From a bacterium (GTDB lineage: Bacteria > Bacteroidota > Bacteroidia > Bacteroidales > Bacteroidaceae), in NCBI GenBank assembly GCA_963657415.1, contig CAVKNF010000002.1, forward strand, positions 1 to 42,445: a stretch of 42,445 nt of DNA, written 5' to 3'. The position numbers were made by a program, and so were the translations under genes. Below, piece by piece: positions 12,121 to 31,193 of this stretch (within the stretch, counting starts at the first letter, position 1; each line of letters starts with the position of its first letter). The notes under the pieces are model-generated. The model had not been told where the DNA came from, made no database searches, and saw nothing but the letters and a program-made list of their open reading frames with translations.

Positions 12121-12140
12121 CTCTTTCAAGTGAGGATTTC

Positions 12141-12884
12141 TTATACGCACATAGTGGCGTATAAGAAATCCAACACCTCTTTTGCAGGTTTCTTTAATTT
12201 GATAATAGGGTCTATAAAATACAATGTGCCGTCTTCCTTACAAAGTACATTGTCTCCTAAATTCGTAACGTCTGTTATGGCGTAGTATTCATTGCCATAA
12301 AAGTATTTGTCCTCCTTTGATAGTTTGAGAATCTTGAGTAGATAATCGTCTATCATCTTTTGTGACGGAACTCGAAACATAGAAGGGATGTTTGCTTGCT
12401 GCAACACTATCCTTATGCCTTTTGCATCTTCTGAGAATCCGATAAAGTGATATCTTGTTGACGGAAACAATATATTGTGTATGAGATGCTCGTAAATAAT
12501 GTCTTCGGGCTTAGTATTTTTCATCGGGGCTTTAGCAAACGGTGATTTCATCTTCGTATAAGTCTTTGCGTCCGTGCTCAAAAACACAATGCTTTCGCCC
12601 GTTGGAGTCATACGTCTATTGCCGAACCGATACCATTCTGATTCGGAAATATAAAGGTGGTTGTCTTTTGCAATCTTTATCAACCGATTACATTCCTCTT
12701 CCTCTGCATCTCTCGCGCTTTTCCCGTTATCTCCATGTCGTTCAGAGGGTAGCCCAACCTCAAACACTCGTATATCGCTTCTGTCGCTATCTGCCTGTAT
12801 TTTTTGCTCACGCTCATAACATACTGGAGAGCGGTCTGACCGCTTACCAAATATATGGTCGACAATCTTTCTTCCATAATTCAT
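12141..12884 (-). CDS. Polyvalent-protein-type Ser/Thr kinase domain protein (Kinase-PolyVal-like)
   Basis: GESIVF, K in YTKMK, HNILFP.T.Y...GF, IVLQQ, catalytic-loop-like ITD.....NVL, YFIDP; AT-rich; TAAATTTG box at 12907-12914; true start uncertain. Confidence 0.75.
   Translation of the reverse strand: MNYGRKIVDHIFGKRSDRSPVCYEREQKIQADSDRSDIRVFEVGLPSERHGDNGKSARDAEEEECNRLIKIAKDNHLYISESEWYRFGNRRMTPTGESIVFLSTDAKTYTKMKSPFAKAPMKNTKPEDIIYEHLIHNILFPSTRYHFIGFSEDAKGIRIVLQQANIPSMFRVPSQKMIDDYLLKILKLSKEDKYFYGNEYYAITDVTNLGDNVLCKEDGTLYFIDPIIKLKKPAKEVLDFLYATMCV
12680..12877 (-). CDS. Small nested protein (65 aa) in the +1 frame of the kinase 5' end
   Basis: AATT-ATG start context (A at -3) about 30 nt from the -7 box; amphipathic helical sequence YRQIATEAIYECLRLGYP. 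Confidence 0.55.
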   Translation of the reverse strand: MEERLSTIYLVSGQTALQYVMSVSKKYRQIATEAIYECLRLGYPLNDMEITGKAREMQRKRNVIG

Positions 12885-13090
12885 GTTTCCTATGCTGTAA
12901 TGACCGCAAATTTAGTCATTTTATATGAATAACCAACCAATTCTACCCCATTGTTTCCTATATTTTGCAATATTGTATGCTTGGCATGTGACTGAAAAAT
13001 ATTTTTGCCGTTTCGTGTTTATATATTACCTTTGTATAATAGTAGGTGGGTTAAATAAGAACCCACCAGTAAGAAAAAACAATGATGGTT

Positions 13091-13522: not shown

Positions 13523-16048
13523 CTATATGGAGAATATGGCAGAAGCCAAGATCTCACGCGGACGGTATTCTGTAATAGAATAAGAATATCCAAGTGTTGA
13601 GAAACTCTTGTATTCGCGTTTGTTCTCTCCCCATAGATTCTTGCATGTCAGCATAAGTTCCACGACTTTCGTCTTATAGGAGAGTTGTGCCTCGGAATAT
13701 ATGTTGAAACTCACAGAACCGTCTTTACTGTGACTACAGTCGTTACTCATCTTTAATTGCCAATTGCCAGGTTGGAAATAAATGTTGAGCCTGTGCCGAA
13801 AACTTCTGTATGTTTGGTCTTTCATCCCTTTCATCACCGATTGCTGTGTGCTTTGGGCGTAAGATGTGTTTTCTTCAAAATAGAACCATTTGGCAGGACG
13901 CATGCTTGCCGAGAATGTCAGTTCCAGCGTGCGGCTTCCGCTTCTTACCTTTGCCGCATTCCTCATTATGTCATAATGGGAGATGCTATATGAAGAGTAA
14001 ATGCTGAGTTTCGTTCGCATAGGGCGAAGGAAACAGTCCACATGCCCGGAAAAGGAATTGCTCATGGATTTGCTGTCTTTGCCTACATTCTCGCGGATAT
14101 AGACTCCATTCTCAACACGACTTTCATACAGGTGATTGAAACGTCTTTGGCTAAAAAAGTAGCCACAGCCATATGACAGTCCGTAACCTGGCAATGTGTA
14201 GTTGTAAGACATGGAAACGTGGTCGCTGGGACTATGCTCAAATTGCCCTGTTCCGGAAGAAGCAGTATTGTAGGATGTGTATATCCTCAATGGATTGAGA
14301 CTATAGAATCCGCTTTGACTGAAACTATGCGAAAGGTTCATCAGAAACAGACTGTATGTGGACAACTTCCAGTTGACATTGGCAGAGGGAGTATATTGCA
14401 ACCTGTTGTCTTTGTCAAGTTCATAGGATGCATATATCCATGCAAATTCATTGTTCAGCGATATTCTAAAATTCTTATAGCGATATTTTGTACTTATTCT
14501 TAGTGCCACATCGTTCTTCCGATAACGCATCCATTGCAAAGTGTCATTGTAACTTACAAATTCACGCTTGAAATCCAAATTGTGTGACAATGACAAGTCC
14601 AGATTGAAATGCTTTCCGATGGAATTCCCGTAAGTCACCCTATTGCTCATCGTAAAAGAATTGATATTCACTTCTTCATATTGACCATTATAAAGAAGCA
14701 ATGTTCCTGGCAAATACGTGTAACTAATGCTAGAACTTGCATTCATTGTCTTGTCCTGTTTCCCGGAAGAGTTGATAGAGAAAGAATTGCTGATTCCTCG
14801 TTTATGAGGCTTTACGTCCTCGCGCAGAATTCTATTGTTCAGAGTTGTGGCGGAATTGGAATGATTGTATGTCAACACTCCATCCAAATTCTCATGGAGA
14901 AAGAATTTTGCAGAGTTGAGTGTATAATCGACATTTGCCCGCCATTCATTTTTATATGCAGCGGCCTCCCTTTTCTGTGTGACAATAGAATTGTTTGCAT
15001 CATCCAGATAACTATACTCGCTATAACTGTCAGATGTCGATTTGTCTTGGATAGTGGAAACTATGGCTCTCAGGTCTCTATCGTCATCCAATGACTTATA
15101 TGCATTTATTGCCACCAGGTGACTATTGTTAAAACCTTGCCGTCCTTCTCCTGCAACCCCGATGTTTTGAAGCAGACCGCTGTCGGACATATCGCTGGCC
15201 ATGCCTCCCAATTCGCTTGATATATTCTCTCCTATATTGTTGTGTTTGTAAATGGCCAGAAACTGAATATTCTTGTTAAGATACATCTCCACAAGTCGGG
15301 CCTTGCGCATCCATACCATAGGCTTTTGCAGAGACATTCCACTGCCTAGTTCTGCAGTTCCCGTCCAAACATTCTTTGCATTCTCGTTCATCACGATATT
15401 GATGGCTGCAGACTCGCTGAAAGTTTTTCCCCGTAAAGATTTTATAGGTTGGTGATTGCGCAACAGTTGTATGCTGTCCACCTTGTTGGCAGACAGGTTC
15501 TTGCTCAAGAGGGCATAGTCTCCGCCCATAGTGTTCTTGCCGTCAACATAAAATCTATTGATGGGAATGTTCTGATATGAAATCGTTCCGTTTATGTCGA
15601 CACTGATTCCTGGGATTCTTGAGATAACGTCCTCTATAGTCCTATCTTGTTTCTGCCTCAGACCCAATACTGAGTATATCAGCGTGTCACCCTGTATGCG
15701 GAATTGTTTTGGAGTAACGGTGACCTCCTTTATTTTCTGCACCTTTTCCTCCATGACGACTTTCATTCCCTGTTTGAAAGATTCCGTGGATATGTTCTTC
15801 TTGGCAAATCCCATACATGTGAAGGATACGCTTGCGATGTCCTTGCCTAGTGGCGTTTTTACAGAAAAGCGTCCCTGCTTGTCGGTCTTTGTAAAAGTCG
15901 CTATTTTCCCCTTACTGTCAAGCAACATCACGGAAACGGATGCCAATACCTTTCCTTCGCTGTTGGCAACTGTTCCCGTGAAAGTGTCTTGTGCTTTCAG
16001 ATATATGCTTGTGAAAAGCATTAAAACGATAAGTGCTAATCTGCTCAT
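13523..16048 (-). CDS. Outer-membrane beta-barrel with carboxypeptidase-regulatory-like domain and plug (GLPGLI-associated, TBDT-like)
   Basis: Signal peptide; GTVAN..G...ASVSV, TD..GRF, GF..K, IKEVTV, GDTLIY, IEDVI.RIPGI.VD..G.I, FYVDGK, NHQPIK, AAINI; alternating beta-strands to the C-terminus. Confidence 0.8.
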   Translation of the reverse strand: MSRLALIVLMLFTSIYLKAQDTFTGTVANSEGKVLASVSVMLLDSKGKIATFTKTDKQGRFSVKTPLGKDIASVSFTCMGFAKKNISTESFKQGMKVVMEEKVQKIKEVTVTPKQFRIQGDTLIYSVLGLRQKQDRTIEDVISRIPGISVDINGTISYQNIPINRFYVDGKNTMGGDYALLSKNLSANKVDSIQLLRNHQPIKSLRGKTFSESAAINIVMNENAKNVWTGTAELGSGMSLQKPMVWMRKARLVEMYLNKNIQFLAIYKHNNIGENISSELGGMASDMSDSGLLQNIGVAGEGRQGFNNSHLVAINAYKSLDDDRDLRAIVSTIQDKSTSDSYSEYSYLDDANNSIVTQKREAAAYKNEWRANVDYTLNSAKFFLHENLDGVLTYNHSNSATTLNNRILREDVKPHKRGISNSFSINSSGKQDKTMNASSSISYTYLPGTLLLYNGQYEEVNINSFTMSNRVTYGNSIGKHFNLDLSLSHNLDFKREFVSYNDTLQWMRYRKNDVALRISTKYRYKNFRISLNNEFAWIYASYELDKDNRLQYTPSANVNWKLSTYSLFLMNLSHSFSQSGFYSLNPLRIYTSYNTASSGTGQFEHSPSDHVSMSYNYTLPGYGLSYGCGYFFSQRRFNHLYESRVENGVYIRENVGKDSKSMSNSFSGHVDCFLRPMRTKLSIYSSYSISHYDIMRNAAKVRSGSRTLELTFSASMRPAKWFYFEENTSYAQSTQQSVMKGMKDQTYRSFRHRLNIYFQPGNWQLKMSNDCSHSKDGSVSFNIYSEAQLSYKTKVVELMLTCKNLWGENKREYKSFSTLGYSYSITEYRPREILASAIFSI

Positions 16049-16848
16049 TCTGACTTTACGTCGAAATATTCAATCGGATATGGTGTCCAGGGGTCAATGT
16101 GAAACTTCGTTTTGACACCATTATTATCATAAGACTCGTAATCTTGTCCCAATTCTATGGCATATTGAGTAGGGTCTTCTGCCTGACGCACGATTTCTCT
16201 GTAGACCTCTTCGGGCGAACTCTTCTTGTAACCAGAAGTGCTTATCCCTATTGACTTGTCACCGCCATTCTTGATTTCAATAGCCTCAAACGAATACTGC
16301 AGTTTGTCGTCAATGGCTTTCAGTATGAGTCCTGGCAGACCGCCAAGTTTCCACGGTCCGTATGCATAAGGCAACTCGACTGTAAACCATACAGTCCAAG
16401 TCCTGCCTCGGAATGTAGTGCAGGCCTTCTGACACTCGTATCCGCAGACTATAGTGTCACCATCGAGCATGTTCCATTCAAAAACTGGCAGAGGCTCAGT
16501 GTAATAAAAGCGATTTGTTGACACTTTGTCTTTGCAAGTCATCTGTCCTTCAGGATATCCCTGCACAATGTCAAAATCGTGGCAACCATTGATTTCCCGT
16601 TCCTTTGGCTGATGTATCCATCCAGGTACATACTTCGGCAATATAGTCTGGCACATGGAGCATTTTTCTCCTATGCACAAAAGTTTGTTTTTCTCATATG
16701 ACGGGTGTGACCAGTCACTGCGAGATAACATTAAAGTCTGGTATTCTACTGTGAGAATACTTTTATCCAATGACTTTTGACCAAAAATATGGCAAAAGCA
16801 GCTAGAATATAAAGCGCAAACTGTTAGCGCGAATAATCTTAGTTCCAT
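16045..16848 (-). CDS. GLPGLI family protein
   Basis: W.....T.VCGYECQKA..FRGRTWTVWFT.ELP...GPWKLGGLPGLILKA.D; signal peptide. Confidence 0.93.
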   Translation of the reverse strand: MELRLFALTVCALYSSCFCHIFGQKSLDKSILTVEYQTLMLSRSDWSHPSYEKNKLLCIGEKCSMCQTILPKYVPGWIHQPKEREINGCHDFDIVQGYPEGQMTCKDKVSTNRFYYTEPLPVFEWNMLDGDTIVCGYECQKACTTFRGRTWTVWFTVELPYAYGPWKLGGLPGLILKAIDDKLQYSFEAIEIKNGGDKSIGISTSGYKKSSPEEVYREIVRQAEDPTQYAIELGQDYESYDNNGVKTKFHIDPWTPYPIEYFDVKSE

Positions 16849-17468: not shown

Positions 17469-17915
17469 TTACACCTTCACCTTTATAATGAGTTTGCGCA
17501 CCTTGCCACTGCCGATGACAGGGGCGTGTGGGTCTTCGGGCCACACTATCATGAACTGACCAGGATGGAGAGTGACATACACCTGGGCACGGTCGGCATA
17601 GAAGGCGCAGTCGGCTGATGCGTCGTAAGCCTGCTTCACGTCAGTGCAGTCTTCCACGGGTTTCCAACCGATGGTCTCCTCGCCCTCCAAGAGCACATGG
17701 ATGTCGATGTAGTCACGGTGTATCTCAAGCACCTGACTGTCAGCGCTGACGAGGTCAGGGTTGGAATTGTTGATGAAGAGGTCGTCGCCCTCTATCTCTA
17801 TGCGTCCGCATGGGGTGTTGAGCAAGTCGTGCGACTTGATGTAGTCAAACGCTTTCTTAAACAATGGATGGAGCGACTCTATGCGCTCTGTATGTTGAAG
17901 ATTTGAAACTATCAT
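17469..17915 (-). CDS. YhcH/YjgK/YiaL (DUF386) family protein
   Basis: LEIHRDYIDIH, GEETIG, D..FY, F.I..PED.HAP, VRKLIIKV. Confidence 0.9.
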   Translation of the reverse strand: MIVSNLQHTERIESLHPLFKKAFDYIKSHDLLNTPCGRIEIEGDDLFINNSNPDLVSADSQVLEIHRDYIDIHVLLEGEETIGWKPVEDCTDVKQAYDASADCAFYADRAQVYVTLHPGQFMIVWPEDPHAPVIGSGKVRKLIIKVKV

Positions 17916-18130
17916 TAGGCAAGCACTCCTTTCTCTCTCATATAATCGGTAAGGTCTTCCATTAGGTATTCCTTTCCAAATGTATGAAGTACGTCATAAC
18001 TTGACACCAAATAATCCATGAGAATGCCAGAAGTCTTGAGACGTTGATATACATCACGAGCACTCAAATTTAATCGGCGAGAAAGGTTGCCGATGCAATA
18101 TGTTATGAAATCAATATTGTCCGTATTCAT
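17915..18130 (-). CDS. DUF3791 domain protein
   Basis: F..YCI..L...L.....VY..L...GIL..YL...YDVLHT.G.EY..EDL; TAATG overlap with the next gene; TAACTTTG at 18179-18186. Confidence 0.85.
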   Translation of the reverse strand: MNTDNIDFITYCIGNLSRRLNLSARDVYQRLKTSGILMDYLVSSYDVLHTFGKEYLMEDLTDYMREKGVLA

Positions 18131-30389: not shown

Positions 30390-31193
30390 AAACGCTAATT
30401 TAAGCCTACTTTTTCGCTAGTTTGTCGGTTCTCGAAAACGCTCATTTTCGCCCTTCGAGTCCGATAAACACTTGCTTTCCCGTAAATCCTAATCCACTTT
30501 TTAGCCCCCTTTTTTCGTCCAACAAACCGCTTGCTCACAAAAGCGTCTGAAATGAAGATTAGCCTCTTTTGGGGTTACAGGTAATTTGGAGTTCACAATC
30601 ATTAACTTTATGTGTGTATAGAAAGATGAAAGGCATTTATAAATATAATGTTTAGACATGTAAATGTAAACACTTGCAAAGTATAAACCATGCGTATACA
30701 TACAACTCTAAATCTATATTTATAAATTGATAAATCTACATAAATAAACCAATACTTATATTTATGCATACGCGATTTGGTATATATAACAAATAGAAAC
30801 CCAATAAGTTAAACCGAGTATTTACTAACATAAACACCATTTTGCATCATCATGCGCCCGTTGTTATGCATTACAACCGATATATACGGGATTATGCAAC
30901 AAATAACCCTTTATAAACCTTATATTTAAGACGTTTATCTCAAATAACTTCATATTTACAATTTAGATAATTGAATTTACAAATACAAAAACATAAACAA
31001 TATAATACTCCTTCTCTTATCTAAGTCTACAAATCAAAATACATAAATCTACATTATAAAACGATAAATCTTGGTTTACATATTTGTATGCTTCAATTAT
31101 TTGTTTTACCTTTGCAAATGCTTAAGAAAAGCCCGTTTTATCACCTGCTTCATACTTATGACCTATGAAAGCGGGTCTTCAAAACCTATAAAA
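30390..31193. other. ~800-bp AT-rich non-coding region with repeated TYTACA motifs
   Basis: No credible ORF; TTTACA/TCTACA at 30735, 30955, 30976, 31026, 31048, 31075, inverted at 30659 and 30665; promoter TTTG (31083) / TACCTTTG (31107-31114). Confidence 0.6.

Follow-up and report, generated by a model that had tools for sequence, protein, structure and literature searches.

Long same-strand gene overlaps under selection are thought to be rare in cellular genomes. In phage lambda, the spanin genes are embedded: Rz1 lies wholly inside Rz in the +1 frame, and the two products form a complex in lysis. Genes within genes have also been described for the Rpn proteins, in which the toxin gene contains that of the antitoxin, start and promoter both being internal, and the antitoxin blocks the toxin directly (Zhong et al., 10.1101/2023.05.02.539157). 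In the HipBST system, HipS is the partner that neutralises HipT, binding close to its nucleotide loop (PMC10653801). The Kinase-PolyVal family, as described by Iyer et al. (2017; PMC5512222), occurs in polyvalent proteins of Bacteroidetes phages and prophages and as stand-alone genes; its traits include a Glu before strand 2, a Gln in the last N-lobe strand, His and Asp residues separated by an insert, and the lack of a C-terminal subdomain. The accessible text of that paper names no partner, immunity gene, overlapping frame, target or activity, and a literature search over sources other than subscription papers and the 2017 paper's external files found no report of a nested arrangement in the family.

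The window considered here (the whole stretch of bacterial DNA that was analysed, 42,445 nt) carries a stand-alone kinase gene of this family with a second, shorter open reading frame nested near its 5' end. A first-pass annotation had proposed the two as an overlapping toxin-antitoxin pair.

The locus and its two predicted products

On the minus strand, the TAAATTTG box (12914-12907) is followed by ATG codons at 12884 (kinase) and 12877 (small gene), each with A at -3 (Table 1). This single box before twin starts, and the 247-aa and 65-aa open reading frames in frames 0 and +1, are as the first-pass annotation gave them; the TGA of the small ORF falls at kinase residue 68. The consensus of the -7 box, and the G at -5, follow PMC6847099. 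A transcript would probably start near 12902, and across the family a TAnnTTTG box is found 25-38 nt upstream of the small ATG in 28 of 34 representatives; no strong inverted repeat was found in the promoter region of the module. Antitoxins of type II systems commonly, though not universally, bind their own promoters. The hairpin at the other end spans the last codons and stop of the kinase, is strong on both strands (z = -7.2 and -6.6, with none of 200 shuffles equally stable), and is possibly a two-way terminator.

The gene had also been called AT-rich. This holds against the upstream flank (GC of 0.38-0.41 for the module against ~0.51), but not against the downstream one (0.39-0.46). An AT-richer stretch adjoining the module, at 13523-16848 of the window, carries a TonB-receptor-like gene and then a Porph_ging (GLPGLI-type) gene, and possibly belongs to the same acquired region. 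Elsewhere in the window, a small DUF3791 gene adjoins a YhcH/DUF386 gene (17915-18130), and the bin with the lowest GC content (0.29) is at 30501-31000.

Table 1. Features of the nested kinase locus (positions in the window).
Feature	Positions	Strand	Basis
-7 promoter box TAAATTTG, Bacteroidota type, common to both genes	12907-12914	-	Sequence
Twin start codons, 7 nt apart; kinase ATG first, small-gene ATG second	12875-12884	-	Sequence
Kinase gene, stand-alone Kinase-PolyVal, 247 aa	12141-12884	-	PF18762; model pLDDT 84
Small nested gene, 65-aa helical protein, proposed antitoxin	12680-12877	-	200 homologs; model pLDDT 88
Helix of the kinase N-extension (residues 28-47); the same DNA encodes small-protein residues 26-45	12744-12803	-	Model; fusions
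Small-protein residues 41-59, main predicted contact surface	12701-12757	-	Interface list; invariance
Kinase domain PF18762 with predicted binding site	12192-12701	-	Profile match; complex model
Perfect 15-bp hairpin over kinase stop codon, between converging ampG-like gene and kinase	12134-12171		Sequence

The larger product is a member of Kinase-PolyVal. PF18762 matches residues 62-231 (E 1e-26; 94.3 bits against a cut-off of 27) over model positions 2-159 of 160, and was the only Pfam family found at E 0.1 or better. This match, and the occurrence of the same domain in giant phage genes, bear out the earlier placement in a kinase family of polyvalent proteins; the accompanying likeness to HipA holds as an analogy only, no HipA family having been matched. 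Eight residues (E97, K111, H133, H136, Q163, D205, N212, and D225) are invariant in 33 of 33 kinases, and all but K111 are, by our own mapping to the published features, hallmarks of the family. After D225 the model has only one short strand and one helix, which points to loss of the C-terminal subdomain. The first ~60 residues had been thought unstructured, as proves right for residues 13-18 and 50-54, the only ones with pLDDT below 50, and wrong for residues 21-40 (pLDDT 79-90, with a helix at 28-36). Fold searches with the kinase gave generic kinase-fold rows only (best Z 5.3, rmsd 4.3, 131 residues aligned); neither HipA-like nor HipB/HipS-like folds were among the rows listed.

The small protein was likewise predicted to be a folded helical protein, and its model is a compact helical domain. 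All 200 candidates from the homolog search are homologs, the closest named relatives being Prevotella and Segatella records, and residues Y43 P44 L45 N46, E49 I50, and A54 R55 are invariant. It matched no Pfam, NCBIfam, or PADLOC family; fold searches gave nothing above Z 4.5 and no Foldseek match at E 0.001. In the ESM Atlas it returned rows from tiny mixed clusters only, with eukaryote clusters of 22-34% HTH share as a lead and no more, and the nested protein of one other locus (L193) returned no rows. A metallophosphoesterase that clustered with it shares no sequence with it and was set aside as a clustering artefact. Related domains occur as two tandem copies without a kinase (P0144, P0138) and as a single, dual-framed copy upstream of a cut-short kinase start (L171); like L171, the distant homologs L169 and L170 are dual-frame, and the kinases of all three are broken. 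A scan of viral contigs found no copy of the small protein.

PF18762 is present in 71 of 201 genomes of the (gut) genus, and the small gene in 7 of 401 family genomes. The 284 flanking ORFs fall into 191 clusters, none present at more than 6 of 80 loci, and no kinase was found within 1.5 kb of 19 ampG-like loci of relatives; other genes follow ampG in these, and an empty site could not be defined. Judged by its surroundings and distribution, the module is solitary, mobile in placement, and patchy in its spread. A defence-island context was considered and finds no support in a scan of 70 flanking ORFs, most of which are genes for housekeeping, transport, or sugar functions, a few being restriction or mobile genes. 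Four loci titled Actinomycetes, Clostridia, and Oscillospiraceae (L024, L025, L030, L076) are near-identical copies of the Segatella module; misbinned contigs are a more likely explanation for these than transfer. Four RNA-labelled runs on one relative (L018) are assembled contigs, perhaps with DNA; as they carry no strand, start, or level information, they speak neither for nor against expression.

The expectation that standard gene callers would report only one of the two genes was correct, except that some clip both. RefSeq holds the long kinase (WP_218417760.1, WP_262288350.1) and GenBank the small protein (MBU9909035.1, MST83367.1), while gene calls on this contig clip the kinase to 180 aa and the small protein to 56 aa. 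The overlap is thus an annotation blind spot, with one of the two products per locus in the databases. No exact match to the nested proteins of three other subfamily loci was found in a 15-billion-protein collection.

Selection on the two frames

Small-protein loci were fetched for 80 of 82 genome loci and for the best 80 of 309 metagenome loci. The claim that one stretch of DNA encodes two proteins is well supported by these homologues. Genome loci with an intact kinase domain number 51, and 47 keep the full overlap open together with the upstream kinase ATG; the other four have one stop (L078, L079) or another layout (L081, L082). An intact domain is found at 33 of the best 80 of 309 metagenome loci, 30 with the overlap open and three with a common stop. 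Five loci therefore retain the domain despite a stop in the overlap (L078, L079, L118, L139, L144).

Codon conservation is frame-specific. A T that would create a kinase-frame stop is found at 3 of 523 small-gene third positions, against 462 of 1301 for other such positions in the overlap; these are counts over 51 distinct domain-intact overlaps, stops allowed, in which the sequences are related and the counts are not independent events, with 25 different codon sites involved. Upstream of an internal GTG, the count is 1 of 261. Under synonymous recoding with the small-protein residues fixed, the kinase frame is open with P = 0.018 (host codon use) or 0.006 (kinase-domain codon use); the corresponding frame is open in 6.7% of 7627 host 65-codon segments. 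The converse calculation says little by itself: with the kinase residues fixed, P = 0.35-0.39 for an open +1 frame, and the small gene therefore rests on its conservation (200 of 200 homologs). Among 34 representatives less than 95% identical, pairwise amino-acid distance in the largest distance class is lowest in the small protein (0.31), followed by the kinase domain (0.40) and the kinase extension (0.50), so that the small protein is better conserved than the domain; at fourfold sites, too, the small frame differs less (0.55 vs 0.71). Taken together, these results leave little doubt that the dual coding is real.

The kinase ATG is at -7, -10, or -13 from the small ATG in 2, 27, and 5 of the 34 representatives, respectively, and at -4, -7, or -10 in other subfamilies. 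L081 and L082 serve as a control: their kinase ATG is about 40 nt before the small-gene stop, and the frame upstream of it has four stops and one stop. Together with five loci having an internal kinase ATG (L180, L182, L184, L186, L195), they overlap only in part, and full nesting is therefore dispensable. An in-frame GTG or ATG at +110 is found throughout the family and is a possible second kinase start.

The pattern of loss is one-sided, as would suit a toxin and its antitoxin. Among 160 small-gene loci, both genes are intact in 77, the kinase alone is broken in 71, both are broken in eight, and the small gene alone in none, with four set aside; this asymmetry is partly built in, because the small gene survives when the domain is deleted, an indel in the overlap disrupts both genes, and it was by the small protein that the loci were found. 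Point nonsense in the overlap is a fairer test, because opportunity is equal (31 vs 29 per sequence). In 153 in-register loci the small frame has no stops, contrary to the worry that homologues might often have them, and the kinase frame has four stop alleles in 17 loci, probably representing five events (one seems to have arisen twice). Four or five nonsense events against none lend modest support to an antitoxin role. In sets selected by kinase, no intact kinase was seen without the small ORF.

In Bacteroidetes, which have no Shine-Dalgarno signals, starts carry A at -3 and additional AUGs close to them are avoided (PMC6847099), so the conserved second ATG runs against the genome-wide trend. 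By a crude start-context score derived from 545 host genes, the small ATG ranks above the kinase ATG in 30 of 34 representatives, a weak hint of antitoxin excess. In six loci (L013, L111, L118, L141, L147, L164), one base is missing between the twin ATGs, so that the kinase ATG is read in frame with the small gene; the small protein becomes slightly longer and the kinase loses its start.

Predicted binding, and the nesting across the kinase family

A model of the complex, built for the window's subfamily only, suggests that the small protein binds the kinase, as the first-pass annotation had supposed. It scores 0.86 (runs 0.85-0.87), with 0.00 for the best of three controls; 0.86 is reached by 116 of 157 solved complexes and by 2 of 215 mismatched pairs, counts that hold roughly for the alignments used here. 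Runs agree in at least 98% of contacts, and partner pLDDT is at least 89. The predicted contacts are at kinase residues 89-93, 100-109, 165-177, and 208-217, centred on F170 (12377-12375), and on the small-protein side at invariant residues 43-55; the kinase positions lie outside the shared DNA, so the contacts cannot originate in trivial covariation of overlapping codons. Read from the sequence, the predicted site would be the hinge and mouth of the nucleotide cleft, near E97, K111, Q163, and N212. A sequence search found no solved relative.

Natural fusions also suggest a pair. In P0170 and P0263 (76% identical), a single chain runs from a small-protein homolog (probability 94%) through the kinase extension to the domain. 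The extension, with its helix of pLDDT up to 90, is kept in both and therefore matters as protein. Among 33 kinases, 29 have F and the other 4 have Y at position 170; F170 is not kept in the fusions, which argues against F170 as a universal anchor. From the model and the fusions, physical pairing of the two proteins is likely.

Nesting was also looked for in loci chosen by kinase family alone: 43 distinct loci, of which 40 were scored, leaving out L002 (at a contig edge), L208 (the second half of L213's gene), and L211 (this window). All 40 have a +1 stop-free run of at least 40 codons over the stretch ahead of the domain; the +2 frame has one in 5 of 40, and control +1 runs inside the domain give 8-11 of 40. 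L178 and L203 pass only via a frameshift-displaced kinase extension, the small ORF being +1 to that extension; L202 has no small ATG, and its kinase also has a stop. A fresh set of 70 loci, 30 returned by search and 40 hand-picked down the lists, was scored by a fixed rule after two contig-end loci were dropped. A nested ORF precedes the domain in the +1 frame in 64 of 68 of these Bacteroidota loci and in the +2 frame in 8 of 68, with the kinase frame open across the small ORF in 63 of 68; one of the passes (L260) is a frameshifted copy. On inspection the small ORF is intact in all four failures, two of which have a broken kinase and two an insertion in the extension. L250 and L253 have an in-frame insertion of ~25 codons in the extension, such that the kinase is open and the nested gene ends early but intact.

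Viral contigs yielded 32 loci (25 distinct) with the domain in a frame open through the whole 1.5-kb flank. In these giant phage ORFs a +1 nested gene is present in 32 of 32 and a +2 one in none, and the same rule is satisfied at 14 of 125 upstream control sites; the +1 frame of giant ORFs is often open regardless (at least 45 codons at 16 of 39 control sites). Of the 32 loci, 27 have a TAnnTTTG box inside the giant gene's coding sequence, 10-50 nt ahead of the nested ATG; among control windows the figure is 1 of 125, a contrast overstated perhaps threefold because the ATG was picked knowing the box and the control windows were narrower. In the first set, with hand-picked starts, the box is found in 25 of 37 against 7 of 333, and for long ORFs in 5 of 7 against 2 of 159. 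Two stand-alone subfamilies (L183, L185, L187, L247-L257; and L175, L219, L229-L243) start ~90 nt further upstream and keep a protein motif like the box-carrying motif of the giant ORFs, without the exact box there.

The 107 bacterial domains fall into nine clusters at 45% identity, with nested ORFs in each. Nested proteins of the other clusters look helical and have recurring motifs; a profile comparison between the window's small family and these proteins found no similarity (probability 0.3%), and a Pfam search with 28 of them gave single weak rows only. A tree of 25 of the 107 domains, with a midpoint root only, does not resolve the direction between giant and stand-alone forms. The window-type kinase itself is represented in viral contigs by two broken fragments only, and was not found in GenBank phages or plasmids. 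The window's own genome has a second Kinase-PolyVal domain (G000:C145:2-454, L002), cut by the contig start. By its occurrence across the sampled sequences, nesting appears to be a trait of the whole kinase family, giant polyvalent phage genes included, which the first-pass annotation, in describing a single locus, had understated.

Interpretation and comparison with known systems

If the two frames form a conflict module, it would consist of two proteins encoded by one stretch of DNA. Nested behind one box, the kinase and the small protein would be co-transcribed, the -7 promoter giving one short-leader mRNA on which ribosomes starting at the first ATG would make the kinase, and those starting 7 nt later the small protein. 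The small helical protein may then bind the kinase domain on the hinge and nucleotide-cleft side and hold it off, like a type II antitoxin; with the partner in short supply, the kinase would presumably harm the cell. Giant polyvalent phage proteins contain this cassette too, with promoter box, +1 small gene, and kinase domain, and a lysogen could use the internal promoter to produce the antidote while the giant protein is not made. Selection on both frames, conserved starts and box, family-wide nesting, fusions, and one-sided loss all argue for this at the sequence level, and the structural model speaks for binding and its site; the transcription start, translation of both products, inhibition, toxicity, antitoxin excess, and biological role are what we infer from them. 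We consider an out-of-frame antitoxin or immunity partner the best of the available readings, with a probability of about 0.63.

Alternatively, both proteins could be made and bind, with the small one activating the kinase, which lacks most of its C-lobe, or serving it as chaperone or substrate adaptor. The complex model predicts binding and not its sign, the fusions are compatible with any obligate partner, and the missing C-terminal subdomain (PMC5512222) could be replaced by the partner. An activator is nevertheless rather unlikely: 71 loci with no working kinase still have the small gene intact, and it is nowhere the only gene broken, stops arise in the kinase frame only, and the small gene's own promoter box in giant phage genes is to be expected if it is needed while the giant protein is unmade. 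A somewhat smaller chance attaches to an inhibitor of a kinase that is no growth toxin and re-tunes host proteins for a phage or mobile element, the stand-alone copies being fading remnants. The kinase is broken at about half of the small-gene loci (79 of 156 scored), its neighbours are mostly housekeeping genes with few defence genes among them, and PADLOC gave no match, all of which would suit remnants; against this, the catalytic residues do not vary in 33 of 33 kinases, intact copies strongly avoid stops, and PF18762 is present in 71 of 201 genomes of the genus.

The remaining alternatives are much less probable. An ordinary two-gene operon, in which the kinase starts late, at GTG 12767 or TTG 12683 (a TTGA overlap), and the long open frame is a by-product, would agree with the annotation of this contig, where the kinase begins at TTG 12683 (P0187, 180 aa), with the GTG or ATG at +110 throughout the family, and with L081 and L082, which do use a late start. 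It is very improbable, in that stops are avoided upstream of +110 (1 of 261), the upstream kinase ATG is always at a 3n+1 spacing, the +110 codon is a consequence of the Glu-Cys codons that are invariant in the small protein, many relatives have no TTG, and the extension survives as protein in the fusions. It is harder still to see the small ORF as a translational control element only, a decoy start or leader peptide lowering kinase output. Given the avoidance of extra AUGs near starts in Bacteroidetes (PMC6847099), a second ATG should indeed divert ribosomes, but the conservation of the small frame at protein level exceeds that of the kinase domain, its fold is confident, its predicted interface falls on invariant residues, and tandem-repeat and fused homologs exist. 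Nor is there much to commend a programmed -1 frameshift as the source of a small-protein-kinase fusion, held to be the true product. Single-record proteins P0264, P0267, and P0274 do join the small frame to the domain, but they resemble the indel alleles of L060 and L083; there is no conserved slippery heptamer (six scattered sites in 34 sequences, none near the end), and the kinase frame has its own conserved ATG.

Returning to the antitoxin reading, a broader and more tentative proposal, which we would put at somewhat less than even odds, is that polyvalent phage proteins have their missing immunity genes in these +1 nested ORFs, with one small inhibitor encoded in the linker directly ahead of each toxic domain and its promoter hidden in coding sequence. 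Such a portable cassette could become a free-standing toxin-antitoxin module once an in-frame ATG arises just before the inhibitor start, with the two ATGs setting the ratio of toxin to antidote without Shine-Dalgarno pairing. How lysogens withstand the effectors of polyvalent proteins would then have an explanation open to test. An uncharacterised kinase family also gains a specific candidate inhibitor and a predicted binding site. The twin starts are a natural two-frame reporter of start-codon choice in bacteria without Shine-Dalgarno pairing, and a long overlap proves close to constant in a protein family that is present in 71 of 201 genomes of a gut genus as well as in giant phage proteins.

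Compared with the published Kinase-PolyVal description (PMC5512222), the kinase here has the same domain, with its conserved Glu, Gln, His, and Asp and its short C-lobe. The layout is that seen in type II toxin-antitoxin modules, with the small partner 5' and one box before both ATGs in 28 of 34. Like HipBA and HipBST as described (PMC10653801), it pairs a kinase with a small protein encoded just upstream; unlike them, it has a kinase of another family, is nested where the Hip genes are not, and has no third gene for a DNA-binding HipB. By analogy, it is best read as a module that may act like a type II kinase toxin-antitoxin pair such as HipST, without being a member of the Hip family. The nearest architectures are the Rpn intragenic antitoxin and the +1 embedding of Rz1 in Rz. 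As in the available account of Rpn (Zhong et al., 10.1101/2023.05.02.539157), the proposed antitoxin is encoded inside the proposed toxin gene, a nesting that is observed for roles that are presumed; RpnS, however, is the in-frame C-terminal tail of its own toxin, a PD-(D/E)XK nuclease, whereas here an unrelated +1-frame partner lies at the 5' end and the candidate toxin is a kinase. The window's locus likewise differs from the lambda pair: Rz and Rz1 cooperate in lysis, while these two genes, which share a leader with two starts or have a promoter within a giant ORF, are proposed to encode an enzyme and its inhibitor.
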